A stretch of DNA of 64,000 nt from Alphaproteobacteria bacterium. GTDB lineage: Bacteria > Pseudomonadota > Alphaproteobacteria > JABAAW01. The translations under genes were made by a program, and so were the position numbers. Where the stretch lies: positions 1,795,912 through 1,859,911 of the forward strand of contig OZ244186.1 in the NCBI GenBank assembly GCA_965216625.1, given 5' to 3'. A model generated the notes under the pieces. That model made no database searches and was not told the DNA's origin. It saw nothing but the letters and a program-made list of their open reading frames with translations. How positions within the stretch are numbered: position 1 is the first letter of the stretch; each line of letters opens with the position of its first letter. This document shows, one piece after another, positions 5,247 to 47,156 of this stretch.

Positions 5247-7604
5247 TTGCGGGAGACGCCATCGATGAAACAACAGTCTACGATGAAGCTGGTGCGCGTC
5301 CGTCTGGCTTTTTGGAGCGAGAGCGTCGCAACCTTTCTTCAGGCTGTATTCATTCGCTCGCGGCGAGGTCCGACGACGGTGACGCTGATCTTTCTTTTGC
5401 TCGCCATCTCGTATCGGATCAACGATCCGCCCTTCATCGAGCAGCTGCGCCTTCAAAGCTTCGACAACTATGTGCGCGCCTGGCCGCACGAAGGGATCAC
5501 CTCGCGTCCGATCGCAATCTTGGATATCGACGAACGCTCGTTGGACGAGTTGGGACAATGGCCATGGCCGCGTACCGTCGTCGGCGATCTGCTGAAATCG
5601 CTGCGGAGCTACGATGTCGCCGTGTTGGCGATGGATGTCGTCTTCTCGGAAGAAGATCGCACGTCGCCGAAGAATCTTGTGCGTCATGTTCTCTACGACA
5701 TCGATCCGATCACGCGCGATCGTTTGTTGCGTCTGCCCGACAACGAGCTCGCCATGACGCGCATTATGGGCGACGGGCTGCCCGTCGTGTTGGGCATGCC
5801 GAACTCTACGCGCACGGACAATATCGGCGAGCGTCTGCCTCCGTCGTCGTTCAAGGGCACCTTCGGTCCCGATCCCGTTTCGTTCATTCGCGCCAACCAC
5901 TTTGCAAACCTGCTTCCCAACGTGCAGACGCTGAACGATCATGCAGGCGGCTTTGGAGTCTTCTCGTTCGGCTTCGACTACGACGGTACTGTGCGCCGTG
6001 TGCCTGTCGTCGTCGCCGTGGGAGAGCAGATCTATCCAAGCCTTGTGCTGGAGACGCTGCGTGTGGGTTCGCAGAGCCAAGGGCTATACTTGCGTAGCGC
6101 AGAAAATTTGGGAATCATCTCGGCATTGTTGCAGCGCGGCGACGGCTCGCGCAGCGTTATTCCGACCGACAACGAAGGACGCATTTGGGTCAAGTTCGGC
6201 AATCCTCAACCCTACAACATCGCCTACGAACCAGGGCAGGAGAAGCGGCTCTATGTCTCGGCGATCGATGTGCTGCGAAAAAAGATTCCCAAGGAGTGGC
6301 TGCAAGGACACTTCGTCTTCTTCGGCACCTCCGCGTCAGGGTTGAAAGATTTACGCAACACGCCCGTCGATCCGGCGCTGCCTGGGGTCGAGGTTCACGC
6401 CAATGTTCTCTCGAACATCCTGTCGGGCGACTCGCTGCTCGTGCCACCCTCGATCGGCATCATCGAGACCGCCGTCATGCTGCTGGCGGGCATTCTGATC
6501 ATCGCGGTCAAGCGACGTTTTTCATTGCTACCCTCGTTCACATTCTTGCTTTTGATCATCGCGTTAAACTTCTTTATCAGCATCTACTTCTACCAAACCC
6601 ACGGCATCCTTTACGATGCGATGCTCATCAGCCTTGTCTCCCTTTTGATCTTCATCATGTTCACCTTGTTCAACTATCTTCGCGAGTCTTCCGAGAAGAA
6701 GAACATTCGCCGCGCCTTCGTGCAATACTTGTCGCCTGATTTGGTCGATCAGCTCTCGGCATCGCCGGACAAGCTGAGTTTGGGCGGCGAGTTGCGCACG
6801 ATGTCGTTTTTGTTTTGCGATGTCAGAGGATTTACGACCATCTCCGAGAGCTACAAGACAAACCCACAAGGCTTGACGCATCTGATGAACCGCCTGCTAA
6901 CGCCGCTGACCAACGAGATATTAGAGCGCAAGGGGACGATCGACAAATACATGGGCGACTGCATCATGGCGTTTTGGAACGCTCCTCTGACCGACGAGCA
7001 GCATGCGTCGAACGCCGTCGATTCGGGGTTGGAGATGTTTCGTGCATTGCGAGTGTTGAACGCAGAGCGCGAGCGCGAAGCCTTGCAGGAAAATCTTCGT
7101 TATTTGCCTCTGAATGTTGGCATCGGCATCAACACGGGCGAGGCGGTCGTTGGCAATATGGGCTCCGAGCAGCGTTTCGACTATTCCGTCTTGGGCGACC
7201 CCGTCAACTTGGCATCGCGCTTGGAGGGACAATCCAAGTCTTACGGCGTCGATATGGTCATCGGCGAGAGCACGGCAGCCATGCTGGAGGGGCGTTATGC
7301 TGTCGTCGAACTCGACAGCATCGCGGTCAAGGGCAAGGAGGAGGCGGTGACCATCTACACCGTTTTAGGCGACGAAACATACGAGTACGGCAAGGAGCTG
7401 GCAGAGCTTTTGCCGAAGCACAAGGCGTTCTTGGAAGGGTATCGAGGACAACTTTGGGACAAAGCCGAGGCTGCTGCAAAAAGTTGCGCACGCTTTGCTC
7501 CGCTGAAAGCCTTCTACGCCGTCTATCAGGAGCGAATTCTAGAATATCGCGCCTCTCCCCCCGCGTCGAACTGGGACGGTGTCTATCGTGCGACTAGCAA
7601 GTAG
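5247..7604 (+). CDS. CHASE2 sensor domain / class III adenylate (or guanylate) cyclase
   Basis: An N-terminal transmembrane segment is followed by a periplasmic CHASE2-like region ('ILDIDERSLDELGQWPWPR'), a cluster of three transmembrane segments, then a cyclase homology domain ('FCDVRGFTTISE...YMGDCIMAFWNAP...IGINTGEAVVGNMGS...GDPVNLASRLE'). The true start may be the MKQQ codon at ~5265. Confidence 0.85.
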   Translation: MRETPSMKQQSTMKLVRVRLAFWSESVATFLQAVFIRSRRGPTTVTLIFLLLAISYRINDPPFIEQLRLQSFDNYVRAWPHEGITSRPIAILDIDERSLDELGQWPWPRTVVGDLLKSLRSYDVAVLAMDVVFSEEDRTSPKNLVRHVLYDIDPITRDRLLRLPDNELAMTRIMGDGLPVVLGMPNSTRTDNIGERLPPSSFKGTFGPDPVSFIRANHFANLLPNVQTLNDHAGGFGVFSFGFDYDGTVRRVPVVVAVGEQIYPSLVLETLRVGSQSQGLYLRSAENLGIISALLQRGDGSRSVIPTDNEGRIWVKFGNPQPYNIAYEPGQEKRLYVSAIDVLRKKIPKEWLQGHFVFFGTSASGLKDLRNTPVDPALPGVEVHANVLSNILSGDSLLVPPSIGIIETAVMLLAGILIIAVKRRFSLLPSFTFLLLIIALNFFISIYFYQTHGILYDAMLISLVSLLIFIMFTLFNYLRESSEKKNIRRAFVQYLSPDLVDQLSASPDKLSLGGELRTMSFLFCDVRGFTTISESYKTNPQGLTHLMNRLLTPLTNEILERKGTIDKYMGDCIMAFWNAPLTDEQHASNAVDSGLEMFRALRVLNAEREREALQENLRYLPLNVGIGINTGEAVVGNMGSEQRFDYSVLGDPVNLASRLEGQSKSYGVDMVIGESTAAMLEGRYAVVELDSIAVKGKEEAVTIYTVLGDETYEYGKELAELLPKHKAFLEGYRGQLWDKAEAAAKSCARFAPLKAFYAVYQERILEYRASPPASNWDGVYRATSK

Positions 7605-7652: not shown

Positions 7653-9467
7653 ATGAGCACGGACAAGCCGAACGGAGCAGACGAGACGAACGCCTTTGCG
7701 CATTTGGTCGGTCGCTTGGGCAAGCCGCCGCCTTTCTCGGAGGGGTGGTTTCAGACTCTGTTGAAGGATACGGACGGGCTTCGTCGCCGTGCCATCTACT
7801 ACTCCTGCTTTGTCAATTTGACGGCTATTGCCGCACCGATTTTCACGCTGCAAGTCTACGATCGCGTCATTTTTCACGCAGGGATCGAGACGCTGAAAGC
7901 GCTTGTGATAGGAATCTTGATCGTCATATTTTTCGATTTTCTCATGCGCAAAGCGCGTGCGAACCTCTTTCGTGCTGTCTCGTTGAGAAACGACGTTTTG
8001 GTCGGGCACAAGATGTTTCGACACACGATGAACTTGCCTTTGCGCGAGCTAGAAAAGCGTCCGACGGGACAATGGATCGCCTTCTTCAACGACCTGGCAG
8101 CAGTGCGAAACCGTATGGGAGGACCGATGGCGGCGCAGTTCATCGACGTTCCTTTCTCGTTGATGTTTTTGGTCGTCATCTTTGTCGTCGCAACCCCGAT
8201 CGCTTGGATCCCCGTCGTCTCGGGGTTGATGTTTCTTATTCTTATTTGGCGCGCCGATGTTAGTGTCGCCGCGCGAGTAAGCAAGGAGCAAGAGCAGATC
8301 GTCAATCGCAACGGCTTGCTCAACGAGCTGCTGCATGCGCGCACGACGGTCAAGTCTCTCTCGCTCGCGCTGCCTTCCGAGACGCGCTGGGCAGAGACGC
8401 AAGGCTCGTTGATCGAAGAATCTGTCCTACGCGGGGCGGCTCACGACCACTATCAGACAATCAGCTACAGCATGACCCAGCTGACGACCATCGCGATGAC
8501 AAGCGTCGGCGCGTTGGCGATCGTCAATCAATCCATGACGATGGGCGCGTTGATCGCTGCAAATATGCTGGGAGGGCGCATGATCGCAAACTTGGGACAG
8601 ACCTTGAACTACTGGCGCGGTTATCAAACATATGTTGCGTCCAAAAAACGACTCAGCACCATTTTCGGAATCGATACGGAAAAGGTGCGCTCCGAAGTGG
8701 CGCAGGAAAATCCGCAGGGAAAAATCACTTTCTCAGACCTATCGTTTCGATACGAGGAAAACGCGCCGCTCGCGCTCGAAGAAGCTAGCGGAACCATAGG
8801 ACCAGGAGGATTCTATGTGCTGGTCGGCGCAAACGGCAGCGGCAAGAGCACCCTCATGAAGCTGCTGCGCGGACTCTACAGACCCGAAAAGGGAGTCGTC
8901 ATGCTCGACGATAGAGACATTCGCCAATTCACCAATCAGGAGATCGCTCGATGGATCGGATACATGCCGCAGGACGCAACCCTGTTCAGCGGCACGCTGC
9001 ATTCCAACATCATCTTCGGCGCAGAGCAGCACAACGACGAGGCTATTTTGGAATCGACGAAATACGCGAACTGCCACCATATCATCACGAAGTTTCCGGC
9101 AGGCTACGAGACGCCCGTCGGCGAGGGGGGAGCCAACATCTCGCCGGGGTTGCGACAGAAGATATGCCTTGCGCGACTTTATTTGCGGCAGCCCAGCCTT
9201 GTCTTTCTCGACGAGCCGACCAACCACCTTGACCAGCAGGGTGTCATCGATTTGGCGAGCTCGTTGAAACTTCTCGCCAAGACGAAGACGGTGCTTGTGA
9301 TTTCCCACAATCCCAGCTTGTTGCAACAATCCGACTATATTGTCGTGATGGAAGATGGACATGTGCGTCAGATCGCGCCGAAGGATGTGATCGCCAAGCA
9401 GGCTGCGGCGCAGGCGCAGAGCAAGAAGGCGGCGTTGCAGGCACCAGAAAAGAGCCAAGAAGCTTAA
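7653..9467 (+). CDS. Type I secretion system ABC transporter (PrtD/AprD-type, no C39 peptidase domain)
   Basis: An N-terminal six-transmembrane domain is followed by an ABC domain ('GANGSGKST', 'ISPGLRQKICLARL', 'LVFLDEPTNHLD'). It is adjacent to a HlyD-family gene. Confidence 0.9.
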   Translation: MSTDKPNGADETNAFAHLVGRLGKPPPFSEGWFQTLLKDTDGLRRRAIYYSCFVNLTAIAAPIFTLQVYDRVIFHAGIETLKALVIGILIVIFFDFLMRKARANLFRAVSLRNDVLVGHKMFRHTMNLPLRELEKRPTGQWIAFFNDLAAVRNRMGGPMAAQFIDVPFSLMFLVVIFVVATPIAWIPVVSGLMFLILIWRADVSVAARVSKEQEQIVNRNGLLNELLHARTTVKSLSLALPSETRWAETQGSLIEESVLRGAAHDHYQTISYSMTQLTTIAMTSVGALAIVNQSMTMGALIAANMLGGRMIANLGQTLNYWRGYQTYVASKKRLSTIFGIDTEKVRSEVAQENPQGKITFSDLSFRYEENAPLALEEASGTIGPGGFYVLVGANGSGKSTLMKLLRGLYRPEKGVVMLDDRDIRQFTNQEIARWIGYMPQDATLFSGTLHSNIIFGAEQHNDEAILESTKYANCHHIITKFPAGYETPVGEGGANISPGLRQKICLARLYLRQPSLVFLDEPTNHLDQQGVIDLASSLKLLAKTKTVLVISHNPSLLQQSDYIVVMEDGHVRQIAPKDVIAKQAAAQAQSKKAALQAPEKSQEA

Positions 9468-9500
9468 ACCTAACACGACACCTGAAGAGAGAAGAAAGCC

Positions 9501-10832
9501 ATGCCACTTGAGTTTATCCCGCACGACGAGGGGTTAGGGGACGAGGACATCAATCCTTTACAACGCCTTGTTTCCAAGTATCGGTGGCTGGAGCGCAATC
9601 GTTTCGCTTTTTTTGCGACGACTTTTATCATGGTTTTTTTCATTTGGGCGTGTTTTGCCAAGTTGGAGAAGTTTTCTATCGTGCCAGGCAGCGTTGTGCC
9701 GCAGGAGAAAACGCAGGTCATACAGCATTTGGAGGGAGGAATCATCGAGGACATCACCGTCAATATCGGCGATCAGGTAGAGAAGGGAGACTTGCTGTTT
9801 CGCATCAACTTGGCGGGCAGCCAACGCGAGGAGCAGCTGCAGGCGGAGCTCGACGGCTATATCTTGCGCAAGGCGCGAATCGAGGCTGCGATCGAGGGCG
9901 TGCCGCTCGCCTTGCCGGAGGAGGAGGTGGCGCGTCGTCCTGAGATCGCTGCTGCCGAGCGCGGTGCTTACTTGTCGGCGCGCAACCAACTTGACAGCGC
10001 GCTGCAAGTCCTTGATGCGCAGATAGAGCAGGAGCGAAGAAAAATCGGCGAAAACGAGGCACGACGCGATACTTTCAACTCTGACCTTGTCATACAAACG
10101 GAGAGTGCCAAGGTTAAAGAAGATTTGTTCAGGCAGGGGTTAGGCGCGCGGATCGAGTATTTGGAGGCAAAGGCGCGAGTAGAGCAGATCGAGGGGAGGC
10201 TCAAGGAGTTGGAGGAGGTTATTCTTGCGGCTAGGTCTGCTCTCGTTCAGGTGCAGGCGCGGCGCGAGGAGGTTTTGCGCGAGAATCAGGGTAGTTTATC
10301 GCGCGAGAAGGTTGCGACTGATAATGTTCTTGCGCAGGCACGCATTGAGTATCAGCGTGCGCTTGATGCTGCGGCGCGCACTGAGGTTGCTGCTCCTTTG
10401 CGAGGCATTGTAAAGCAGATTTACTTCAACACTATTGGAGGAGTTGTGCGACCGGGCGATCCTGTTATGGAGATTGTTCCTTCCAGCGAGAATCTTGTTG
10501 TTGAGGGCAGGTTGGCGCCGCATGAGCGGGGTTTTGTAAAAATTGATCAGGATGCGGTTGTAAAGATCACGGCGTATGATTTTTTGTTGTATGGGGGGTT
10601 GCGGGGCAAGGTTGAGCAGATTTCTGCGGACACTTTGACTGCTCCGGATGGGGCTACTTATTTTCGGGTTGTGATTCGCACGGATAGGACTTACTTGGGC
10701 GATCAGCCGGGCAATTTACCTATTTCGCCGGGCATGGAGGTTACGGCGGACATTCATACGGACAATCGGAGTGTTCTTTCTTATGTGTTGCGTCCTATTT
10801 TTCGGTTGAAGAATAGTGCGTTTCGCGAGTAG
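9501..10832 (+). CDS. Type I secretion membrane-fusion protein (HlyD family)
   Basis: One N-terminal transmembrane segment, a long coiled-coil and a C-terminal 'PGMEV' lipoyl/beta-barrel region are typical of HlyD. It lies immediately downstream of the T1SS ABC gene. Confidence 0.9.
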   Translation: MPLEFIPHDEGLGDEDINPLQRLVSKYRWLERNRFAFFATTFIMVFFIWACFAKLEKFSIVPGSVVPQEKTQVIQHLEGGIIEDITVNIGDQVEKGDLLFRINLAGSQREEQLQAELDGYILRKARIEAAIEGVPLALPEEEVARRPEIAAAERGAYLSARNQLDSALQVLDAQIEQERRKIGENEARRDTFNSDLVIQTESAKVKEDLFRQGLGARIEYLEAKARVEQIEGRLKELEEVILAARSALVQVQARREEVLRENQGSLSREKVATDNVLAQARIEYQRALDAAARTEVAAPLRGIVKQIYFNTIGGVVRPGDPVMEIVPSSENLVVEGRLAPHERGFVKIDQDAVVKITAYDFLLYGGLRGKVEQISADTLTAPDGATYFRVVIRTDRTYLGDQPGNLPISPGMEVTADIHTDNRSVLSYVLRPIFRLKNSAFRE

Positions 10833-11087
10833 TGCTTTGCGAATGAGTGACGGGACGCTCAATAATAAACGGGCGCAAAACATCGCGTGCGTAGCACGCG
10901 GGGAGCGCGAGGGAGTAATCCCTCGCAAAAGACCCCGCGTCAGCGGGAGGAATTTATCCCCCCGCGCAGTAGTGCGCTTTATCTACGCGCGTAGCGCGTA
11001 GCCTCTTATTCAAAAGCGCGTGGGGGGATAAATTCCCCTCGCAGAAACGCGCAAGCTGACTCTTAACACGGCAAGGCGGGTTTGTTA
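10833..11087. repeat. Mosaic hairpin-repeat array (family also found at eight other loci in this window)
   Basis: It contains modules 'gcgcgagggagtaatccctcgcaaaagaccccgcgtcagcgg' and 'gcgcgtagcgcgtagcctcttattcaaaagcg', which recur elsewhere in the window. Confidence 0.85.
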
Positions 11088-12380
11088 TTATTTATTTTGT
11101 TTGTTGGCTTCTATTATTTGTTCCCATTCTCTAGCGATTTTTTGCCCTGCCATGATTTGTTCTGTTGTTAATATTTTTTTAATATCATTTATCCCTTCCC
11201 TTGCTTTTTTATTTCCCTCCTTGGCAGCGAGTAGAACCAAAGCATAACTGGTAGGAATATCTTGTTTAACACCATAACCATTAACATACATGACAGATAA
11301 ATTACCGAGCGCATTAGCGTGTCCTTGTTCTGCTGCTTTATGATACCACTCGGCTGCCTTTTGATAATCTTCCAGAACGCCTTTTCCTCTTTCGTACATC
11401 ACGCCCAAATTGTATTGTGCGTCAGCTAATCCTTGCTCTGCTGCCTTACGATACCACTCTGCTGCTTTTTGGTAGTCTTCTAACACTCCTCTTCCTATTC
11501 TATAAAAATCACCTAATTTGTATTGCGCAAAAGCTAATCCTTGTTCAGCTGCCTTGCGATACCACACGACAGCTTGCTTGTCATCTTTCTTAACTTCTTT
11601 TCCTTGTTCATGTAGCCTACCTAAATTGAATTGTGCATTAGCATGACCTTGCTCTGCTGCCATACGAAACCACTCGACAGCTTTCCTATCATCTTGCTTA
11701 ATTTCTTTTCCTTTTGCATACGATACGCCCAAATTGAATTGCGCATTAGCATGACCTTGCTCTGCTGCCATACGAAACCACTCGACAGCTTTCCTATCAT
11801 CTTGCTTGATTCCTTTTCCTTTTGCATACGATACGCCCAAATTGAATTGCGCATTAGCATGACCTTGCTCTGCTGCTTTATGAAACCACTCTACAGCCTG
11901 TGTATAATCTTGCTTAACGCCTATTTTTTTTGCATAAGAAACTCCCAAATTATATTGCGCCCCAGCAAGTCCTTGTTCGGCTGCCTTAAGCCACCACTCG
12001 GCAGCTTGTTTATAATCTTGCTTAACGCCTTCGCCTGCCTCGTACATCAAACTTAAATTATACTGCGCAATAGCATTTCCTTGTTTTGCTGCTTTGCGAT
12101 ACCACTTAACAGCTTGTGTATAATCTTGTTTGAGACCTTTCCCTTCTTTATACATCAAACCTAAATAGATTTGCGCGTCAGCATATCCTTGTTTTGCCGC
12201 TTTACGGAATAGAGGAATGGCTTCTGTGTAGTTTTTCTTTTTGTAAAATTTTACTGCTTGCTGGGCAATTTTCTTTGCACCCTGCGCGTGTGCGTCAAGA
12301 GCGAGTGGTAGCGACAAAGGCAAGGCGAGGGCAAGAGTAGTAGCAAAAACTGCCATCCAACGAGGATACTTACGGGACAT
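11088..12380 (-). CDS. Secreted Sel1-like repeat (SLR/TPR-like) protein
   Basis: A Sec signal peptide (MSRKYPRWMAVFATTLALALPLSLPLALDAHA) is followed by about 11 tandem Sel1 motifs ('A.YNLG.MY..G.GV.QD...A..W..KAA.QG.A.AQ'). The GC content is lower than in neighbouring genes. The start was refined to M47 of ORF 11088..12518. Confidence 0.85.
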   Translation of the reverse strand: MSRKYPRWMAVFATTLALALPLSLPLALDAHAQGAKKIAQQAVKFYKKKNYTEAIPLFRKAAKQGYADAQIYLGLMYKEGKGLKQDYTQAVKWYRKAAKQGNAIAQYNLSLMYEAGEGVKQDYKQAAEWWLKAAEQGLAGAQYNLGVSYAKKIGVKQDYTQAVEWFHKAAEQGHANAQFNLGVSYAKGKGIKQDDRKAVEWFRMAAEQGHANAQFNLGVSYAKGKEIKQDDRKAVEWFRMAAEQGHANAQFNLGRLHEQGKEVKKDDKQAVVWYRKAAEQGLAFAQYKLGDFYRIGRGVLEDYQKAAEWYRKAAEQGLADAQYNLGVMYERGKGVLEDYQKAAEWYHKAAEQGHANALGNLSVMYVNGYGVKQDIPTSYALVLLAAKEGNKKAREGINDIKKILTTEQIMAGQKIAREWEQIIEANKQNK

Positions 12381-13307
12381 GGGAAGACTCCTATTTTTCT
12401 TTGTTGATAGGATAAGAGTAGTAAAAACTTCATGCCTTGTCAACAAAGCTTGTGTCTGCCTTTGCGATGCGCGCTCCTCATAAAGCGCAGGCGAGCAAAG
12501 GCAGACACACACAAGCACAACAGAATCGCCGTGCCATGTTACGAGTCAGTATTGCGCGAGGCAAGCCTCGCGCTTTGGCACAAGAGGCTACGCGCTACGC
12601 GCGTAGTTTTTTCAATCTCTAGGACGAAGAAAACATTGTCGCCCGCCGTGTTAAGAGTCAGCTTGCGTATTGCTTCGCAATACGCTTTTGAATAAGAGGC
12701 GCACTTCGTGCGATTCTTTTTGTCGCTATCTTCTAGGCAAAATTAAAGACGCTCTACCATGCTATGAGTCAGCTTGCGCGAGGCAAGCCTCGCGCTTTGG
12801 GACAAGAGGCTACGCGCTACGCGCGTAGTTTTTTCAATCTCTAAGACGAGGAAAACAGAATCGCTCTACCATGTTAAGAGTCAGCTTGCGCGTTTCTGCG
12901 AAACGCGCTTTTGAACAAGAGGCGCGCTACGCGCGATTCTTTTTGTCGCTATCTTCTAGGCAAAATTAAAGACGCTCTACCATGTTAAGAGTCAGCATTG
13001 CGCGAGGCAAGCCTCGCGCTTTGGGATAAGAGGCGCACTGCGTGCGATTCTTTTTGTCTATAGGGCGAGGAAAACATTGTCGCCGCGCCGTGTTAAGAGT
13101 CAGCTTGCGCGTTTCTGCGAAACGCGCTTTTGAATAAGAGGCTACACACTTTGCGCTTCGCGCAAAGTGTGTAGAAGGCGCTATCGCGCCCCGCTGACGC
13201 GGGGTCTTTTGCGAGGGATTACTCCCTCGCGCTCCCCGCGTGCTACGCACGCGATGTTTTGCATCCGTTTATTATTGCGATTCCCGTCATTCGTTCGCGA
13301 GCTCGTC
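12381..13307. repeat. Tandem array of about eight ~105-110-bp units, each a conserved scaffold plus a variable perfect hairpin
   Basis: The scaffold 'ccatgttaagagtcagcttgcg[hairpin]cttttgaa.aagaggc[hairpin]gattctttttgtcgctatcttctaggcaaaattaaagacgctcta' repeats. Hairpin cores vary between units but stay self-complementary, e.g. gcgcgaggcaagcctcgcgc, gcgtattgcttcgcaatacgc, gcgcgtttctgcgaaacgcgc and ctacacactttgcgcttcgcgcaaagtgtgtag. Confidence 0.9.
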
Positions 13308-16154: not shown

Positions 16155-16329
16155 CTCGTCGGCGAGGGGTCGGGCAGCCGTCATGGGAGGGGGGAGAGAG
16201 GTGCTGTGCTTGGGATCACAGAGGGGGGGGACAATCGTACGAGGGGGGGGCAACGGGGAGGTTGAAAAACTGAGGGAGTTATCATAACAACGAAGCTATT
16301 GTACTTTTTGGATTGCGTGTAAGCAAGCG

Positions 16330-16971
16330 GGCAAAATGGGGAGGCGCGCGTAGTTTTGACGGGCGCGAAAACGAACGCGCGCTTGCGCTCGTGCTTTTTA
16401 AAGGCATACGCTCGCGCAACAGACTTACTTTGTATGATGACGGACGCAAAACATCGCGTGCGTAGCAAACATCATGGACGCGCATTGCAAGCAACGCGCT
16501 ATGGGGGAGCGCGAGGGAGTAATCCCTCGCAAAAGACCCCGCGTCAGCGGGGGGAATTTATCCCCTCGCGCGCGCAAGCGCGCTTTTCTGCGCGTGAGCG
16601 TAGCGAAACGCGCAGCCTCTTATTCAAAAGCGTATTGCGAAGCAATACGCAAGCTGACTCGCAACATGGTACGGCGATTCTGTTTTCCTCGCCCTAGAGG
16701 CAAAATTAAAGACGCTGTGCCGTGTTACGAGTCAGCTCGGGGACAAATTCCCCTTGCGCGAGGCAAGCCTCGCGCTTTGGTACAAGAGGCTACGCGCTAC
16801 GCGCGTAGAAAAGCGCACTGCGTGCGCTCCGCTGACGCGGGGTCTTCGTGGGGGGAATTTATCCCCCCACACCCCCCGCGCACGCTGCGCGTGCGCATGT
16901 TTTGCATTCGTAAAAATTACCCGCGTCCCCCAATGTGCGCCAGTGCGCGTTCGTTTTTGCATCCGTCAAGA
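16330..16971. repeat. Mosaic hairpin-repeat array
   Basis: It carries the same scaffold and hairpin modules as 12381-13307, in both orientations. Apparent ORFs here (e.g. 16474..17061) are repeat artefacts. Confidence 0.85.
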
Positions 16972-18060
16972 CTATACGCGTCGCTCCCAGCCCTCCTCGC
17001 CAAAGCCAATCTCGCGCTCCAAAAACTCCCCCAAGCCTGCAAATCGAGAATGCTCCGCTAACCTTCTTCGACAACGCCTCATCGTCGTCACTAACCACCC
17101 CCCATAACGACCCCCTCCCCGCAAGCGCGAAAGACGATGCAGAATGCCAATCATCCGCAACTCTCGATGCAACGCGCACAAAGCATAATGCCGCACCGCA
17201 GAAATATCACCACACCCCGCATAAGCCCGCTCATAACAACCCCATAACGCCTCGCGCTGCACAGCAGGCATCGACCACAATCCATCCTCCAACAACGAGA
17301 CAACATCGTAACAACGCGGCGCAATGTGCGCATCCTGAAAATCAATGAAGACACAACGCTCCCCTTTATCAAGCACGAACAAGTTCTCGATATGCACATC
17401 GCCCAACACAAGAGCAAGCTCACCCTCGCAAAACGCAGCGTCTCGGTAGAGATCACGCCACAATCCCTCCCAAACAAGTCGCTGCTCTTTTGTCAGAAAA
17501 ATATCGGCGAAAGACATCGTCTGTTCAACGAATCGCTCCTCGGTAAAAGCAGGCAGAATGTCAGGAGCAAACTTCGTGTCGATTCTAGAAAGGCGGATCA
17601 GATCATCCACAGCCCGTTGGAACATCGGCAAGCAACCCTCAATACCGCGCGATTCGAGCGCGTGCGCGTAGCTGTTCTCGCCCAAGTCCTCGATGACAGC
17701 AAGGTCGTTTTTGCCATCGATCGCCTCGATAAACGGCACACGCAAACCCACGCGCGTCAGAAAGGAGGTCATATCTTGCAAACGCCGCAAGTAAGGCACA
17801 AAGCAAGGAGTATCCGAAGACTCCGCCTCCCGTCGCGCATCGATGAGAATCGCGCTCGTCGCAAGGATATTCGTATTTTTGCCCGTCTTCTCGCTCGTCT
17901 TCAATCTGTTATGAAGTCGAAACAATCGTCGCTCCGATCCTGACAGAGGCAAAGGCTCGACACTCCTCCATCCTCGCAAAACAGGAGAGGGAGGCAAGCA
18001 AGCTGTTTCTCTTTCCGTCTCTCCCAGCCCTCCCAGTTCTCCCCCGGGCTTGTCAGGCAA
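16972..18060 (-). CDS. Phosphotransferase enzyme family (APH/CHK-like kinase) protein
   Basis: Brenner/catalytic motifs 'LVLGDVHIENLFV' (HxDxxxxN-like) and 'VFIDFQDA' (DFG-like) are present, with an N-terminal Gly-rich lobe. It lies 7 nt downstream of the ftsH stop on the same strand. The substrate is unknown; it could be an AmgK-like sugar kinase. Confidence 0.6.
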   Translation of the reverse strand: MPDKPGGELGGLGETERETACLPPSPVLRGWRSVEPLPLSGSERRLFRLHNRLKTSEKTGKNTNILATSAILIDARREAESSDTPCFVPYLRRLQDMTSFLTRVGLRVPFIEAIDGKNDLAVIEDLGENSYAHALESRGIEGCLPMFQRAVDDLIRLSRIDTKFAPDILPAFTEERFVEQTMSFADIFLTKEQRLVWEGLWRDLYRDAAFCEGELALVLGDVHIENLFVLDKGERCVFIDFQDAHIAPRCYDVVSLLEDGLWSMPAVQREALWGCYERAYAGCGDISAVRHYALCALHRELRMIGILHRLSRLRGGGRYGGWLVTTMRRCRRRLAEHSRFAGLGEFLEREIGFGEEGWERRV

Positions 18061-18067
18061 AACGCGC

Positions 18068-19990
18068 TTAGCCCGCTTGGGGTTTGGCAGTCATCCCCTT
18101 CATCCCCAAGCCTGCGACCGCAATATCGGGCAGACTTGCGCGGCGTTTTTTGGTAGCGGCGGGCTTGCGTGGCTTTATTTCTCGCGCGAGTTTGCGCCCT
18201 GCCAAGACATCGTTGATGTCTTGCCCGCTCAAGGTTTCAAAGGTTAGCAACGCCTTAGCGAGCGTGTGCAGCTGCTTTTTGTTTTTCTTCAGAATTTTCT
18301 CGCAAGATTTATATGCTTGGTCGACGAATCGTCGTGTTTCTGCGTCGATGGCGTTTGCGGTCGCCTCCGAGATATTCTGTTGCCTTGCGATCGAATGTCC
18401 CAAGAAAACCTCTTCTTGGTTTTCCTGATAGCGAATGGGACCCAACTCGTCGGACATGCCCCACTCGGTCACCATCTTTCGTGCGATGGCGGTCGCCTGT
18501 TGAATGTCGCTTGCGGCACCTGTTGTAATTTTTTCTTTGCCAAAGATCATTTCTTCGGCGATGCGTCCTCCCATAGCGACGATGATGTTTGCTTCCAGTT
18601 GGTCTTTCGCAAGCGAGATGTGGTCGCGGGCAGGCAAGCGCATGACCATGCCCAAGGCGCGTCCGCGCGGAATGATCGTCGCCTTGTGCACAGGATCGGA
18701 GGCAGGACAGGAGAGCGCGGCGATGGCGTGTCCGCTCTCGTGATAGGCGGTCAGGCGACGTTCTTCTTCCGACATCACCATCGACTTGCGCTCGCTACCC
18801 ATCAGCACTTTGTCTTTGGCGTCTTCCAGCTCGCTTAGGGTGACAAGTCGTTTGTCGCGTCGGGCTGCGAGCAATGCTGCTTCGTTGACGAGATTTGCTA
18901 AATCCGCGCCTGAAAAACCTGGCGTGCCGCGTGCGATTTGGCGTGCGTCTACATTTGGTGCTTGTGGCACTTTGCGCAGATGGACGAGCAGAATTTTCTC
19001 GCGTCCGTCGATATCGGGATTCGGCACGACTACTTGTCGGTCGAAGCGTCCTGGTCGCAGGAGTGCGGGATCGAGCACATCGGGGCGGTTTGTTGCCGAG
19101 ATTAAGATAACGCCTTCGTTCGTTTCGAAGCCGTCCATTTCGACGAGCAGTTGGTTGAGCGTCTGTTCGCGCTCGTCGTTGCCGCCGCCCAAGCCTGCGC
19201 CGCGGTGTCTGCCGACGGCATCGATTTCGTCGACGAAGATGATGCATGGCGCGTTCTTTTTGCCTTGCTCGAACATGTCGCGCACGCGTGATGCTCCGAC
19301 GCCGACGAACATCTCGACAAAGTCTGAGCCTGAGATTGAGAAAAAAGGCACGTCTGCTTCGCCGGCGACGGCACGTGCGAGCAGCGTTTTACCTGTGCCT
19401 GGGGGGCCGATCAGCAATACGCCTCTGGGAATTTTACCGCCGAGGCGTTGGAACTTTTTCGGATCGCGCAAGAAGGCGATGATTTCTTCTAGTTCTTCTT
19501 TAGCTTCTTCGATACCTGCGACATCGTCGAAGGTGATACGCTCGGTTTTTTCGTTCAGCAGGCGTGCGCGAGAGCGTCCGAATCCCAGCGTTTTTCCTCC
19601 TGCGCCTTGGATTTGTCGCATGAAGAAGACCCATACGCCGATCAGCAGCAGCATGGGGAACCATTGGATCAGGATATAGAGGAACGAGGGGCCTCTGTCG
19701 GGGGGTTCGGCGACTATATCCACTTTAGCTTCGGAGAGTTTGCGCACTAAATCGGGATCGTCGGGCGAGTAGGTTGAGAAGCGTTCGCCTGTTTTTGTTG
19801 TGCCGGAGATACGCTTATCTTCTAGGCGTACGGAGACGACTTGTCCTTCGGCGACGGCGTCTAGGAATTGCGTATAGGTCATGGATTGATTTTTACCGCT
19901 CTTCGGCTTTTTTTGGAACGAGCCGATCAGGAAGGTAAGGGCTGCGACGATGACGAGCCAGACGACGATATTGCGAAGCGAGGGTTTCAT
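18068..19990 (-). CDS. ftsH: ATP-dependent zinc metalloprotease FtsH
   Basis: There are two N-terminal transmembrane segments, an AAA+ module ('[18 protein letters not shown]', 'IIFVDEIDA', SRH '[20 protein letters not shown]') and the HEXGH zinc site ('YHESGHAI'). Confidence 0.97.
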
Positions 19991-20602
19991 GGGGGAAACG
20001 CTTATAGAGAAGGGAGAAACGAGGATTGCGCTTGAGTTACAATATGCCTATCTTTGCGCGCGGTTTCAAGGGGGCTTGCGTAGTTTAATTGACGGAACTT
20101 GCTATGGATAAACGGATGCAAAACAAACGTGCGGTTGCGCGATGTGGGGTGAGCGTGTTTGCCTCTGCTTGCTTGCGCTTTTTTGATTAATTTTAATAGG
20201 TAGCGGCAGTGTCCCAAAAAACGAGACTCGCGCTTTGACGAGTAAACGAGCGCACGCGAAGCGTGCGCGGGGGTGTGGGGAGGCTTTGCCCCCCCGCAAA
20301 AGACCCCGCGTCAGCGGAGCGCGTAAGCGCTTTTTTGATTAATTTTAACAGGTAGCGGTAGTGTCCCAAAAAACGGGACTCGCGCATTGACGAGTAAACG
20401 AGCGCACGCGAAGCGTGCGCTCGTTTACGCGTCAATGCGCGAGTCCCGTTTTTTGGGACACTGCCGCTACCTGTTAAAATTAATCAAAAAAGCGCAAGCA
20501 AGCAGAGGCAGACACGCTCAACCCACATCGCGCAAGCGCGCGCTCGTTTACTCGTCAATGCGCGAGTCCCGTTTTTTGGGACACTACCGCTATCTGTTAA
20601 AA
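19991..20602. repeat. Repeat complex with nested inverted repeats, including a ~168-bp near-perfect palindrome (20329-20494)
   Basis: The arms 'gcgcttttttgattaattttaacaggtagcggtagtgtcccaaaaaacgggactcgcgcattgacgagtaaacgagcgcacgcg' and its reverse complement flank a central 'aa' and carry only two mismatches. Half-copies flank the palindrome at 20160-20280 and 20500-20600. Confidence 0.9.
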
Positions 20603-22255
20603 TTAATCAACAGGTAGTAGTAGATTGCGTTCCTCAATGTCCGCAAACCTCACGCGCGGCAACTCCTCCCCCTCCTCCCCCGAAAGCCCCCGCGCATACC
20701 CCCCCTCAACCACAATGCCAAAACTCGGTACAACACACACCTCCCCACCACTCCAAAAAGAAGGCAACACCTCCCGCACACGCCACGGCAACTTCTCAAA
20801 CCGAGCAAACTCCCGCTCAAGTCGAACATCCTTTTTCATCGCAAGAGCTCGCCCAATACTACGGCGCAACCCCACAACCCCCGCACGCCCCAAAGCCTCG
20901 CAAGTCCAACCCACAAAAGAGACAGCGCAAGCAGAAGGAGTATCTCTGCGCGAAGAAATAGACGGAGAAATAGGCGAAGAGATAGAGATAAGAAAACGTC
21001 CGTCCCAAAGCCTTTCCCGCAACAAGCCATCCCCCATCGAAAGAACTTCGATGCGCAACGCCGAGCGCGTCGCAAAGAAAACATCCCCCCTAGCAAACAA
21101 CAAGCAACGACCGAGCGAAAAAACAGCAGATTCTTTTCTCTCCCTTTCCGCCTTACCCGCATCGCGCAGAAACTTTTCTAAACACTCTCGCCACACCCCG
21201 CCAACCCGTCGCACCTCCCTCGTGCGCACCCCCCTGCCTCCGACCGAGCGCGCCATATTCGCAAGCACCCTGAGCGCAACCCCCCCCTCCAACGCCAAGA
21301 ACGCCCCGCTCTCGACGCAAATGTAACCATCAGCATAACTATCAGCGTGCAAAAACAGATTCGAGCTCGCTTGCACCTGCATAAAATCTCGCACCGCCTT
21401 CTCCAACGCCTCCTCCTCCGTTTGCAGCGCAACACACCGCGCGAGCAAACTTGCCTGCTCCGCTTGCGACAAACCCGCGCAGATAGGACGCAAGCGGTTG
21501 CGCGCATAACACGGCTGTAAGTTCGACGGATCCTCCAACCACGCTACTCCTTTATCTTGTCCTCTGCCTTGTCTCGCACCAAGTCTCTTTTTTGGCTCTC
21601 TTTCTCGTAGCCATGTTTGCAGCGATGCCTTCGATGCTTGCAACAGAGGGCGCAACAACAATACCTCTCGACACTCCCCTTGTCCTCGTCCCCCTCCCTG
21701 CTTATGCGCTCGCACACGGCGAAATTCGCGCATGCCGCCGCGACCGCGCAACAACCCCGCCTCCTGCAGCATGTGCGTTTCGAGTTGGTCGTCGCGCGTA
21801 TGTCCCAACGCCAAACAGCCAACCTCGTTCTCCAAGCACCAGTCCAAAAACTTGCGCAAGCGAAACAGACGCATGTTCTGTTGCAGGTTTCCCCTGTACG
21901 AGCCCAAAGGCACCTCAGGCGCGAAAACAAACGCAGCAAGCCCGAAGTCGTCCTCTAGCCTCCGCTTCAAGGCTTCACACTCGCTTGTGCTTGACGCGCG
22001 TTGCCGATGGTCGCAGATCAACGCGGCGACAAAGCTGGCGGGATGTTGCGCTACCTGCTGCATCCAATCTTGGCACAACAACAGCAAGGCGAGCGAATCG
22101 CTTCCCCCCGAACAGGCAACGGCAAGCCGTCGCGGCACGCCAATCTGCAAGGGATTTTCCAACCCCTTCTGCAAACCCTTTTCAAAAACTTTCTCTAACG
22201 ATCGCGCAAGAATCTCCGACGGGGCTTGCTGAGAGGAGGAATGTTGGAACAGCAT
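20603..22255 (-). CDS. tilS: tRNA(Ile)-lysidine synthetase TilS
   Basis: The PP-loop 'LAVACSGGSDSLALL' is present and it sits upstream of ftsH, a conserved synteny. The N-terminus was trimmed to avoid overlap with cpoB, so the start is uncertain. Confidence 0.8.
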   Translation of the reverse strand: MLFQHSSSQQAPSEILARSLEKVFEKGLQKGLENPLQIGVPRRLAVACSGGSDSLALLLLCQDWMQQVAQHPASFVAALICDHRQRASSTSECEALKRRLEDDFGLAAFVFAPEVPLGSYRGNLQQNMRLFRLRKFLDWCLENEVGCLALGHTRDDQLETHMLQEAGLLRGRGGMREFRRVRAHKQGGGRGQGECREVLLLRPLLQASKASLQTWLREREPKKRLGARQGRGQDKGVAWLEDPSNLQPCYARNRLRPICAGLSQAEQASLLARCVALQTEEEALEKAVRDFMQVQASSNLFLHADSYADGYICVESGAFLALEGGVALRVLANMARSVGGRGVRTREVRRVGGVWRECLEKFLRDAGKAERERKESAVFSLGRCLLFARGDVFFATRSALRIEVLSMGDGLLRERLWDGRFLISISSPISPSISSRRDTPSACAVSFVGWTCEALGRAGVVGLRRSIGRALAMKKDVRLEREFARFEKLPWRVREVLPSFWSGGEVCVVPSFGIVVEGGYARGLSGEEGEELPRVRFADIEERNLLLPVD

Positions 22256-33706: not shown

Positions 33707-34273
33707 TAAAAAATAAAAACTTATGCTGTCGCGTGAGCGCGTGCCATTAAAAAGCACAAGCACAAGCGCGAACGCGACAGATATAAATGCGCTTCGTGCG
33801 ATTCTTTTTGTCGCTAGCTTCTAGGCAAAATTAAAAACGCTCTACCATGTTACGAGTCAGCTTGGGGATGAACTCCCCTTGCGCGAGGCAAAGCCTCGCG
33901 CTTTTGAACAAGAGGCGCGCTTCGCGCGATTCTTTTTGTCGCTAGCGCGAGTGAAAACATTGTCGCCCTACCATGCTACGAGTCAGCTTGCGCGTTTCTG
34001 CGAAACGCGCTTTTGAATAAGAGGCTACACACTTTGCGCTTCGCGCAAAGTGTGTAGAAGGCGCTATCGCGCCCCGCTGACGCGGGGTCTTTTGCGAGGG
34101 ATTACTCCCTCGCGCTCCCCGCGTGCTACGCACGCGATGTTTTGCGCCCGTTAATATACAAAGCGCGTGCCATTAAAAAGCACAAGCGCGAACACGACAG
34201 ACAAACAAAAAACGCAAGCAAAGGCAAACACGCACAAGCATAACCCCCGCAATTTTGCTAATATACCCCCATC
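33707..34273. repeat. Mosaic hairpin-repeat array
   Basis: It contains 'cttctaggcaaaattaaaaacgctctaccatgttacgagtcagcttg...' units and the 'ctacacactttgcgcttcgcgcaaagtgtgtag' and 'gcgagggattactccctcgc' modules. Confidence 0.85.
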
Positions 34274-35002
34274 ATGTCCCTAACCCACCCCATCTGCACC
34301 ATCCTCCGTCAAGACTACGCCGCCTTCCTCCACAACCTCCCCCCCTCCTCCGCCGACCTCCTCCTCACCGACCCCCCATACACCATCTCCCGCAAAACAG
34401 GCTTCCAAAAAGTCCGCCAAGGCGTAAAACGCTTCGCACTCTCCATGGACTTCGGCGCATGGGACAAAGAAAATATCAACCTCCATAACCTCTGCCAAGC
34501 CGCACATATAGCACTCCGTAAAGGAGGAACAGCAATCGTTTGGTACGACCTCTGGAAAATCTCCGACCTCAAAGACGCCATGAACAACGCAGGCTTCCGC
34601 ATGCTCCGTCTCATCATCTGGCAGAAAACAAATCCCGTCCCGCTCAATATGAAAAGAACCTACCTCTCCAACAGCCGCGAGATCGCCATCCTCGCCGTCA
34701 AAGGAGGAAAACCCACCTTCAACGACCAATACCACAACGGAATCTACAACCTCCCCATCCCAAGACACCTCGGCAACCGACAACACCCAACACAAAAACC
34801 CCTCTCCCTCTTTACCGAACTCATCGAAAAACACTCCAACAAAGGAGACCTCGTCATCGATCCATTCCTAGGATCAGGAACAACCGCAATCGCAAGCCTA
34901 CAAACAGGACGGAAATTTCAAGGCTGCGACATAAATAAAACCTATACCCAAATAGCCCAAAAAAGAGCCGAGCAATGCATACAAAATCTCAAATCTTTAT
35001 AG
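34274..35002 (+). CDS. Compact beta-class DNA N6-adenine (amino) methyltransferase, apparently an orphan
   Basis: Motif IV 'LLLTDPPY' precedes motif I 'VIDPFLGSGTTAIAS', which is the beta-class order. At 242 aa it lacks the CcrM C-terminal domain. Its coding strand is CA-rich and G-poor, unlike its neighbours. Confidence 0.85.
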   Translation: MSLTHPICTILRQDYAAFLHNLPPSSADLLLTDPPYTISRKTGFQKVRQGVKRFALSMDFGAWDKENINLHNLCQAAHIALRKGGTAIVWYDLWKISDLKDAMNNAGFRMLRLIIWQKTNPVPLNMKRTYLSNSREIAILAVKGGKPTFNDQYHNGIYNLPIPRHLGNRQHPTQKPLSLFTELIEKHSNKGDLVIDPFLGSGTTAIASLQTGRKFQGCDINKTYTQIAQKRAEQCIQNLKSL

Positions 35003-42496: not shown

Positions 42497-42766
42497 CACT
42501 TTCGCGGATGAATGACGCGCTATCGCGCGTGGGGATGTGGGGATGTGCGGTAGTGTCCCAAAAAACGGGACTCGTATATTGACGAGTAAACGAACGCGCA
42601 CGCAGTGCGCGTGGGGGTGTGGGGGGGCTTTGCCCCCCCGCAAAAGACCCCGCGTCAGCGGAGCGCGTAAGCGCTTTATCTACCAAGACTAGCCGCCAAC
42701 CCCCTTGCCAAATTGTGCTAAAAAAGGCACACTGCAGAGTCTCAAGTACGACCCAAGAACTTCGCC
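42497..42766. repeat. Mosaic hairpin-repeat array (short)
   Basis: It contains 'gtagtgtcccaaaaaacgggactcg...gacgagtaaacg...' and 'caaaagaccccgcgtcagcggagcgcgtaagcgc' modules. Confidence 0.85.
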
Positions 42767-46647: not shown

Positions 46648-47156
46648 CTTGCGGCGATTTTTGTCTTGCGAACAAGACACGTGCTTTTTTGATTAATTTT
46701 AACAGGGAGCGGTAGTGTCCCAAAAAACGGGACTCGCGCATTGACGAGTAAACATGCGCACGCGAAGCGTGCGCGGGAGCGCGAGGGAGTAATCCCTCGC
46801 AAAAGACCCCGCGTCAGCGGGGCGCGATAGCGCCTTCTACGCGCGGAGCGCGTAGCCTCTTATTCAAAAGCGCAAGGCAATAGCATGGGGACGCATACGG
46901 CAAGCCGTATGCTATGGCCTCGCGCAAGGGGAGTTCATCCCCAAACTGCCTCGTAACATGTTGGGGATGAACTCCCCGCAGGGCTATTCGAGTTTTCCTC
47001 GCTAGAGTAGCAACAAGGAGAGGAGTACCATGAGAATTAAAGACTCCTCTCCCTGTGCCTTCTGTGATTGTGTTTTCCTCGCCCTAGCAAAGCAAGGGGA
47101 GTTCATCCCCAAGGGAAATTTATCCCCAAGGGGAGTTCATCCCCCTGTGTCTGCCT
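46648..47156. repeat. Mosaic hairpin-repeat array
   Basis: It carries one arm of the 20329-20494 palindrome family, the 'gcgcgagggagtaatccctcgc' module and 'ggggatgaactcccc'-type hairpins. Confidence 0.85.

Follow-up and report, generated by a model that had tools for sequence, protein, structure and literature searches.

The window analysed here, a stretch of 64,000 nucleotides in its full length, has the content of an ordinary chromosome (tol-pal, pst, cobalamin synthesis, uvrC, leuS, an RTX protein and a Sel1-repeat protein), and no tRNA or tmRNA gene was found in it. The feature under study lies in the spacer between tilS and ftsH, both encoded on the minus strand. A preliminary description of this DNA had placed it there, and the domain matches of the two flanking genes bear this location out. 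Upstream of tilS are a gene for a TPR protein (CpoB-like) and an OmpA/Pal gene, and pal-cpoB-tilS-ftsH is the usual alphaproteobacterial gene order. The spacer and the features that bound it are as follows.

18068-19990, minus strand: ftsH (matches to the domains FtsH_ext, AAA and Peptidase_M41)
19991-20602: tilS-ftsH spacer, 612 nt
20036-20074, minus strand: ftsH promoter-like block, CCCTTGAAA-N17-CATATTGT (promoter match TTGAAA/CATATT, 20069 to 20041; five-genome alignment)
20603-22255, minus strand: tilS (PP-loop ATPase, 550 aa, by domain match; the start is the ATG also used in the gene call of L005, a contig compared below)

As assembled, this spacer contains a tight palindrome of 169 bp (repeat search), with arms of 83 nt each, 20327-20409 and 20413-20495, which are 98% complementary and differ by two mismatches, 20359(T)/20463(G) and 20393(A)/20429(G). 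Its G+C content is about 49%. The preliminary description had it at 20329-20494 around a central 'aa'; the palindrome is there, but those coordinates are about 2 nt off and the true centre is GAA (20410-20412). When folded as single-stranded DNA, the 169 nt form a single hairpin of -109.3 kcal/mol, versus -26.9 +/- 2.9 for shuffled sequences (z = -28.5), the entire repeat cluster at tilS-ftsH folds with z = -24.7 relative to shuffles, and the 45-nt core of the underlying repeat unit occurs five times in the window versus 0 expected. The palindrome is thus a structure statistically far above chance. A comparison of the whole window with Rfam 15 gave no match at gathering score, and the best sub-threshold match at the tilS-ftsH locus, to a snoRNA model (28 bits for a threshold of 64), is an artefact of the palindrome.

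The palindrome is composed of copies of a repeat unit whose canonical form is a module A, then a hairpin H1, then usually a multi-hairpin module B. Module A is about 75 nt long and AT-rich, with the invariant core GTGTCCCAAAAAACGGGACTCG. H1 is a GC-rich hairpin whose stems vary between copies with the pairing kept (GCGCACGC/GCGTGCGC, CGCGCAC/GTGCGCG and CGCGCGC/GCGCGCG), and module B comprises a G-run hairpin, CCCCGC-GTCA-GCGGGG and GCGC-GTAA-GCGC. This one unit is present four times in the tilS-ftsH spacer (copies c1 to c4), together with two copies of a segment S, in the following arrangement.

20121-20174, plus strand: segment S, inverted copy, extending from c1 out to 20121 and forming the outer part of a 148-nt inverted repeat (6/54 mismatches to its partner)
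20175-20268, plus strand: copy c1, module A with its own H1 (20250-20268), the most diverged local copy (4/75 differences to c2 and to c3)
20269-20326, plus strand: module B, the normal 3' continuation of A-H1 (BLAST)
20327-20409, plus strand: left arm of the palindrome, formed by copy c2 (module A and the left half of H1; 2/83 differences to c3)
20327-20420, plus strand: copy c2 including the whole of H1 (repeat search)
20402-20495, minus strand: copy c3 including the whole of H1 (repeat search)
20410-20412, no strand: symmetry centre, the GAA loop of H1 (GCGCACGC-GAA-GCGTGCGC, 20402-20420); the same hairpin is terminal in c1, in copy c6 and at L003:5811
20413-20495, minus strand: right arm of the palindrome, formed by copy c3 (repeat search and copy comparison)
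20496-20549, minus strand: segment S in gene orientation, common to the metagenome-assembled genome (MAG) L006, where it directly follows the tilS stop (L006 spacer 281-340 corresponds to window 20549-20490, 95%)
20536-20610, minus strand: copy c4, which adjoins tilS and holds its stop codon, orthologue of the single unit of L005 (repeat search and strain comparison)

Around the tight palindrome, S, A and H1 together make an outer, looser inverted repeat of 148 nt (20121-20268 versus 20402-20549, 91%), with the 6/54 mismatches in S and four real mismatches in A. The half-copies in opposite orientations that had been described as nested around the palindrome are therefore genuine, being accounted for by the four copies of one unit and by this outer repeat. 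The same holds for the two mirror-image open reading frames that had been attributed to the repeat: the peptides of 20193-20435 (minus strand) and 20387-20617 (plus strand) are 89-92% identical because both frames read the reverse strand of the repeated unit. That they represent a genuine small gene was considered and rejected, since both arise from one reading of a unit that is repeated, with a mix of synonymous and non-synonymous changes between copies.

The unit is not confined to this spacer. Self-BLAST of the window placed units or modules at 42.5, 46.7, 16.8, 52.9 and 54.3 kb and elsewhere, and two further copies contain module A.

42547-42677, plus strand: copy c5 (5'-truncated A, H1 variant and B), about 50 nt after the uvrC stop (core count, BLAST)
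46683-46856, plus strand: copy c6 (A, H1 and a B variant), located 36 nt downstream of the stop codon of a gene for a SpoU methylase (core count, BLAST)
42613-42677, 46775-46856, 16824-16896, 52902-52990 and 54344-54408: further module B sites, with others in L005 and L008

The preliminary description did not recognise that the unit is one of a dispersed family, further members of which lie at 42.5 and 46.7 kb of the window and in a second genome; it is not special to the tilS-ftsH locus. Mosaic hairpin modules cover 3486 of the 7166 intergenic nt of the window and are found in 9 of its 17 spacers of at least 60 nt, across which H1, the G-run hairpin, the CCCCGC-GTCA-GCGGGG hairpin and a CTACGCGC..GCGCGTAG hairpin recur. 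A, H1, B, S and other modules are combined differently at each locus and in each genome. Outside the tilS-ftsH locus, nine of ten A units are co-directional with the gene that they follow, 0-185 nt after its stop codon and most within about 60 nt, and the tenth lies in a divergent spacer. MITEs are characterised by terminal inverted repeats, a target-site duplication and copies of uniform length. The ends of the units here have only GCGCTT/AAGCGC in common, the copies being truncated or recombined at different points, and the comparison of the filled with the empty tilS stop (window versus L006) revealed no clear target-site duplication, just a possible TAA(A). No transposase, RAYT, invertase or SbcCD was found among the approximately 45 open reading frames of the 64-kb window.

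Other mosaic modules fill the spacers 10833-11087, 12519-13307, 16254-16971, 33707-34273, 52731-53365 and 54104-54597, for example GCGCGAGGC-AA-GCCTCGCGC hairpins and CTACGCGC..GCGCGTAG followed by a T-run, and several of them are common to the MAG and L005. Two genes adjoin repeat-rich spacers, namely a stand-alone N6/N4 DNA methylase gene (34274-35002, plus strand) and an HNH endonuclease gene (53366-54103, plus strand). A 195-aa open reading frame (window 16474-17061, plus strand; L005:8930-9517) has no Pfam match and is called as a gene in the public contig; it is on the opposite strand and lies mostly in a spacer rich in repeats, overlapping an APH-family gene at its 3' end. The repeats have probably given rise to a false gene call here.

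The spacer was compared with that of four relatives, making five genomes with the window: L005 (an independent ENA metagenome contig of 26 kb), the MAG L006, L007 and L008. The ENA record ERZ25071281 contains both the strain of L005 and the MAG. L005, which came from an exact-protein look-up of FtsH, encodes an identical FtsH and has flanks 97-98% identical to the window, the two being collinear over L005 1-5678 (window 26165-20536) and L005 5900-13009 (window 20091-12980). Its spacer measures 401 nt versus 612 nt and comprises a single A-H1-B unit by the tilS stop, the orthologue of c4, then other mosaic modules, with neither the palindrome nor segment S. In L006 TilS is 80% identical, and in its spacer of about 300 nt the tilS stop is immediately followed by S, A units being absent. 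L007 and L008 are more distant (about 80% DNA identity): the spacer of L007, of 121 nt, is free of repeats, and that of L008, of 368 nt, contains a B-like module. The palindrome had been thought notable for persisting within the conserved tilS-ftsH pair; it is in fact absent from L005, despite the near-identical flanks, and from the three further relatives. Judged from these alignments, it is a strain-specific arrangement and not a conserved element of the gene pair. As a separate point, tilS of L006 (5001-6703) is called as 473 aa and goes out of frame in a SPIS-repeat region, the remainder forming a separate 101-aa open reading frame, which reflects either a frameshift or an assembly error.

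Both edges of the variable zone can be located. On the tilS side, the stop codon (TAA, 20603-20605) and the last codons (GTT GAT TAA, 20603-20611, minus strand) lie inside copy c4, and the C-termini of TilS differ: ..LLLPVD in the window, ..LLLPSASGE in L005 and, by DNA, ..LLPVR in the MAG. The end of the protein has therefore been reshaped by the insertion of repeats. On the ftsH side, the promoter-like block is situated about 50-80 nt upstream of the ftsH ATG and is invariant in all five genomes, down to about 79% DNA identity; its counterpart in L005 is at 5920-5960, and it is likewise found upstream of ftsH in L006, L007 and L008. It is the sole promoter-like match at the locus outside the repeats, a weak match to consensus, and resembles the sigma32 heat-shock consensus, CTTGAAA-N13-15-CCCCATNT; a literature search for support of a sigma32-type ftsH promoter gave nothing usable. 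The repeats fill the zone between the tilS stop and this block, and the zone is freely rewritten between close relatives.

Beyond these loci, the core of module A was found in just one genome of a one-genome-per-species collection, the MAG to which L006 belongs (Alphaproteobacteria bacterium, CBDCGG010000002.1), with six core matches at loci non-syntenic with those of the window. The MAG and the window share about 89% DNA identity across 10.9 kb of the syntenic tilS-ftsH region. An unusually strong conservation of the repeats between species was considered and rejected, the identities of units (87-98%) being set against this background of about 89%. The A core gave no match in JGI metagenomes, and blastn against annotated plasmids and phages was equally without match. 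An invariant 18-mer of module B was present in eight JGI contigs, and these matches were rejected as members of the family, because the organisms are unrelated and the 18-mer is in every case part of a commonplace intrinsic terminator, AAAGACCCCGC-GTCA-GCGGGGTC-TTTT. The family thus has no sequence relative in the searched collections and appears to be a previously undescribed mosaic of the BIME/REP-like kind, a known kind of element.

The family can be compared with the BIMEs (bacterial interspersed mosaic elements), which in enterobacteria are built from REP hairpins. Both are extragenic, dispersed and of high density, both are mosaics of short GC-rich hairpins and other conserved motifs in variable order and orientation, and both occur mostly at gene 3' ends or between genes, with a content that varies among close strains. 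Short GC-rich imperfect palindromes of about 20-40 nt repeated in extragenic DNA, and hairpins combined with other motifs in varying order and orientation, are both found here. The differences are the absence of any sequence relationship to the enterobacterial elements and a module A that is long (about 75 nt), AT-rich and largely non-palindromic. The palindromes of the REP superfamily carry a GTAG or CGTC tetranucleotide tag at one end (PMC3733652), and by inspection some modules here look like GTAG-tagged palindromes (CTACGCGC...GCGCGTAG), the tag being absent from the G-run hairpin and from H1, which has neither GTAG nor CGTC. REPINs, in which two REPs pair into a long hairpin and which RAYTs mobilise and replicate as doublets at many loci (PMC3116915, PMC3337134), resemble the palindrome in being two inverted repeat copies that make a long intergenic element capable of hairpin formation. 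They differ in that their arms are about 20-40 nt versus 83 nt, and in that the dispersed entity here is the single unit and not the doublet. The assignment to REPINs was rejected, as the doublet is not replicated at many loci: in the window and eight related loci (about 150 kb in all) it is the one tight inverted repeat whose arms reach 40 nt or more. Three short tight inverted repeats of 25-28 nt, of unrelated sequences, occur in L006 and L008. Another mosaic with which the family can be compared, by description only, is that of the RIMEs, reportedly Rhizobium-specific intergenic mosaic elements described by Osteras, Stanley and Finan in 1995 (cited in PMC2873474): the alphaproteobacterial host, the intergenic place and the mosaic of large palindromic modules are alike, and the restriction of the present family to just one genome of the species-representative collection sets it apart.

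Taking these observations together, we consider it likely that the locus is a cluster of four dispersed mosaic repeat units in which the palindrome arose as a strain-specific head-to-head fusion at H1, and not as a selected device. Two units in opposite orientation that share a single H1 hairpin make up the 169-bp palindrome. As H1 is the same on both strands except for its 3-nt loop, it offers 8+8 nt of identity between oppositely oriented units, and recombination or replication template switching at H1 would then have produced the head-to-head fusion. Small inverted repeats are documented starting points of larger palindromic duplications (review PMC7999016), which accords with this origin. 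The outer 148-nt inverted repeat (S, A and H1) would be a further product of such events, and a more diverged one. The zone in which the rearrangement lies, from the tilS stop to the conserved and presumably own promoter of ftsH, is tolerant of change.

The main competitor of a fusion between existing members is a de novo fold-back (snap-back) duplication, in which the nascent strand would have folded at H1 and copied a single A-H1 unit in reverse, so that the arms would be very recent. In favour of such an event, the symmetry centre falls exactly at the H1 loop, the arms are 98% complementary, and in yeast inverted repeats of just 5-9 bp are enough to drive palindromic duplications (PMC7999016). 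The comparison of copies points the other way. The palindrome arms (c2 and c3) show 2 differences per 75 nt, c2 and c4 equally 2, c2 and c6, located 26 kb away, 3, and c1 differs from c2 and from c3 by 4 in each case, so that the arms are no closer to each other than c2 is to c4 and about as close as c2 is to a distant copy. Moreover, both arm mismatches fall at sites that are polymorphic in the family, with alleles found in other copies, a coincidence for which a rough estimate gives 1-4% if they were two random new mutations. Finally, the arms end at a GCGC common to modules B and S and do not run on into S as a copy of S-A-H1 would. The closeness of other family pairs and the position of the mismatches favour the fusion of existing members, and we regard a fresh fold-back as unlikely. 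The suggestion that the palindrome is a recent duplication-inversion of a repeat unit can accordingly be kept in part: a rearrangement of repeat units is favoured, but the likeness of the arms is no sign of fresh duplication, other pairs being equally alike. A history with a single crossover among c1 to c4 was also tried, and the allele pattern does not fit it. The two S copies are 11% diverged, yet L005 has no S.

That the palindrome is absent from the cell and was produced by a chimeric or fold-back read, or by mis-joined repeats, must be weighed at a locus of this type, palindromes and clustered repeats being classic sites of assembly error, all the more as no independent assembly of the palindrome allele was found: exact look-ups of the TilS and Pal of the window showed neither on record in any independent assembly, and that of FtsH returned only the palindrome-free strain (L005). 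Against this, the collinearity of both flanks with the independent L005 contig extends to the very edge of the cluster, the arms do not match perfectly and differ precisely at family-polymorphic sites, and the palindrome is internal and, at just 169 bp, easily spanned by single long reads; a fold-back chimera would also invert the flanking unique sequence, and no such inversion is seen. We hold an artefact to be the least probable of the explanations considered. The instability of such palindromes through SbcCD, raised in the preliminary description, is a reasonable point yet overstated. Escherichia coli strains with chromosomal interrupted palindromes of 85 bp and 246 bp in a wild-type background are in experimental use (PMC3315005), so the argument is weaker than it was made to appear. 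The palindrome of the window is similar to these in size and in the single-stranded hairpins expected at replication, a substrate for SbcCD-type nucleases; the E. coli palindromes are artificial, and this one is natural, with its two arm mismatches, its 3-nt centre and its G+C content of about 49%.

Putative transcription signals are also carried by the repeats. On the reverse strand of each A unit there is a promoter-like match, TTGGGA-N16-TGtTAAAAT (weak consensus), and those of c1 and c2 point towards ftsH. Module A opens with a T-run, often behind a GC hairpin, which results in terminator-like matches (weak consensus), and module B has hairpin-plus-U features in both orientations; the presence of its 18-mer in the JGI terminators indicates that module B, on its reverse strand, has terminator-type anatomy. 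Such matches recur because the unit itself is repeated. The 83-bp hairpin is followed by no U-tract (its two strands continue with AAGC.. and TTACGC.., respectively), as would be needed for a rho-independent terminator, and weak terminator-like matches are limited to sub-modules, that is, the B hairpins and the hairpin plus T6 that begins A. A transcript of tilS would form the 83-bp duplex and then run through the reversed module B with its terminator-like hairpin and U-tract, near which tilS transcripts would most likely end or be processed, ftsH presumably being transcribed from its own promoter. By analogy, the modules could be REP/BIME-like 3'-end hairpin cassettes with a part in termination, mRNA-end protection or protein binding.

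Could the arrangement nevertheless have been selected as a cis-regulatory device, a strong terminator, RNase III processing site or attenuator by which the expression of tilS and ftsH is tuned or made independent, or perhaps an invertible segment that flips module B? The strong fold predicted for the minus-strand RNA of the spacer (-365 kcal/mol, z = -18.7) is in favour of this, as are the CUCCGC-UGAC-GCGGGG followed by UCUUUUG in the reversed module B, the core of which is an intrinsic terminator in unrelated bacteria, and the promoter-like matches of the reversed c1 and c2 units facing ftsH. On the other hand, neither the nearest strain nor any other relative has the palindrome, and all of them nevertheless retain the gene pair and the ftsH block; the long hairpin has no U-tract behind it; no recombinase or invertase gene was found nearby among the open reading frames of the window; and the consensus matches come with the repeat, also where a promoter is needless, as between the convergent genes at 46.7 kb. 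A dedicated terminator or attenuator is unnecessary, because ftsH keeps an invariant promoter-like block downstream of the repeats. We consider such a device very unlikely, and our best reading of the sequence is that the palindrome would not be a selected regulatory device, any effect as terminator or insulator being incidental.

A more speculative proposal, to which we give slightly less credence again, would be that the A-H1-B cassettes are undescribed 3'-end elements which either target terminators or give rise to them and which are under active rearrangement in an uncultured clade of alphaproteobacteria, with the 148-nt arms acting here as an invertible switch or the doublet being a newborn REPIN-like hairpin element. 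If the switch were real, a flip would turn round the terminator-like module that lies close upstream of ftsH, which encodes a stress protease. Concerning the geometry, the 148-nt inverted arms (20121-20549) enclose a segment of 133 nt, 20269-20401, made of module B and c2, and recombination between them would hypothetically invert it, so that the tight palindrome would come to lie on the side of c1, with module B flipped.

If the fusion of existing units at H1 is correct, the palindrome would be a fairly ordinary by-product of repeat shuffling and the locus would be of value mainly as a clean, cautionary example in which a long palindrome beside an essential gene is explained by the rearrangement, at strain level, of selfish or structural repeats and not by a regulatory invention. 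The locus also documents the family, apparently a new BIME/REP-like system of an uncultured alphaproteobacterial lineage that makes up about half of the intergenic DNA of the window, prefers gene 3' ends, rewrites a whole spacer between strains 97-98% identical and even provides the stop codon of tilS. Its loci could act as strain markers and as natural test cases for the tolerance of bacteria to palindromes of about 170 bp.

Repeats of other types are also present in coding regions of the window. The Sel1-repeat protein (11088-12518, minus strand) contains eight tandem repeats of 108 nt (11296-12267), and its array is only about 77% identical to that of L005 versus 97-98% in the neighbouring genes and is therefore fast-evolving. 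The RTX protein (47157-52730, minus strand, 1857 aa) has many calcium-binding nonapeptide repeats with a periodicity of 27 nt, and an ABC transporter and HlyD pair encoded about 37 kb from its gene (7653-10832, plus strand) could be its type I secretion system.
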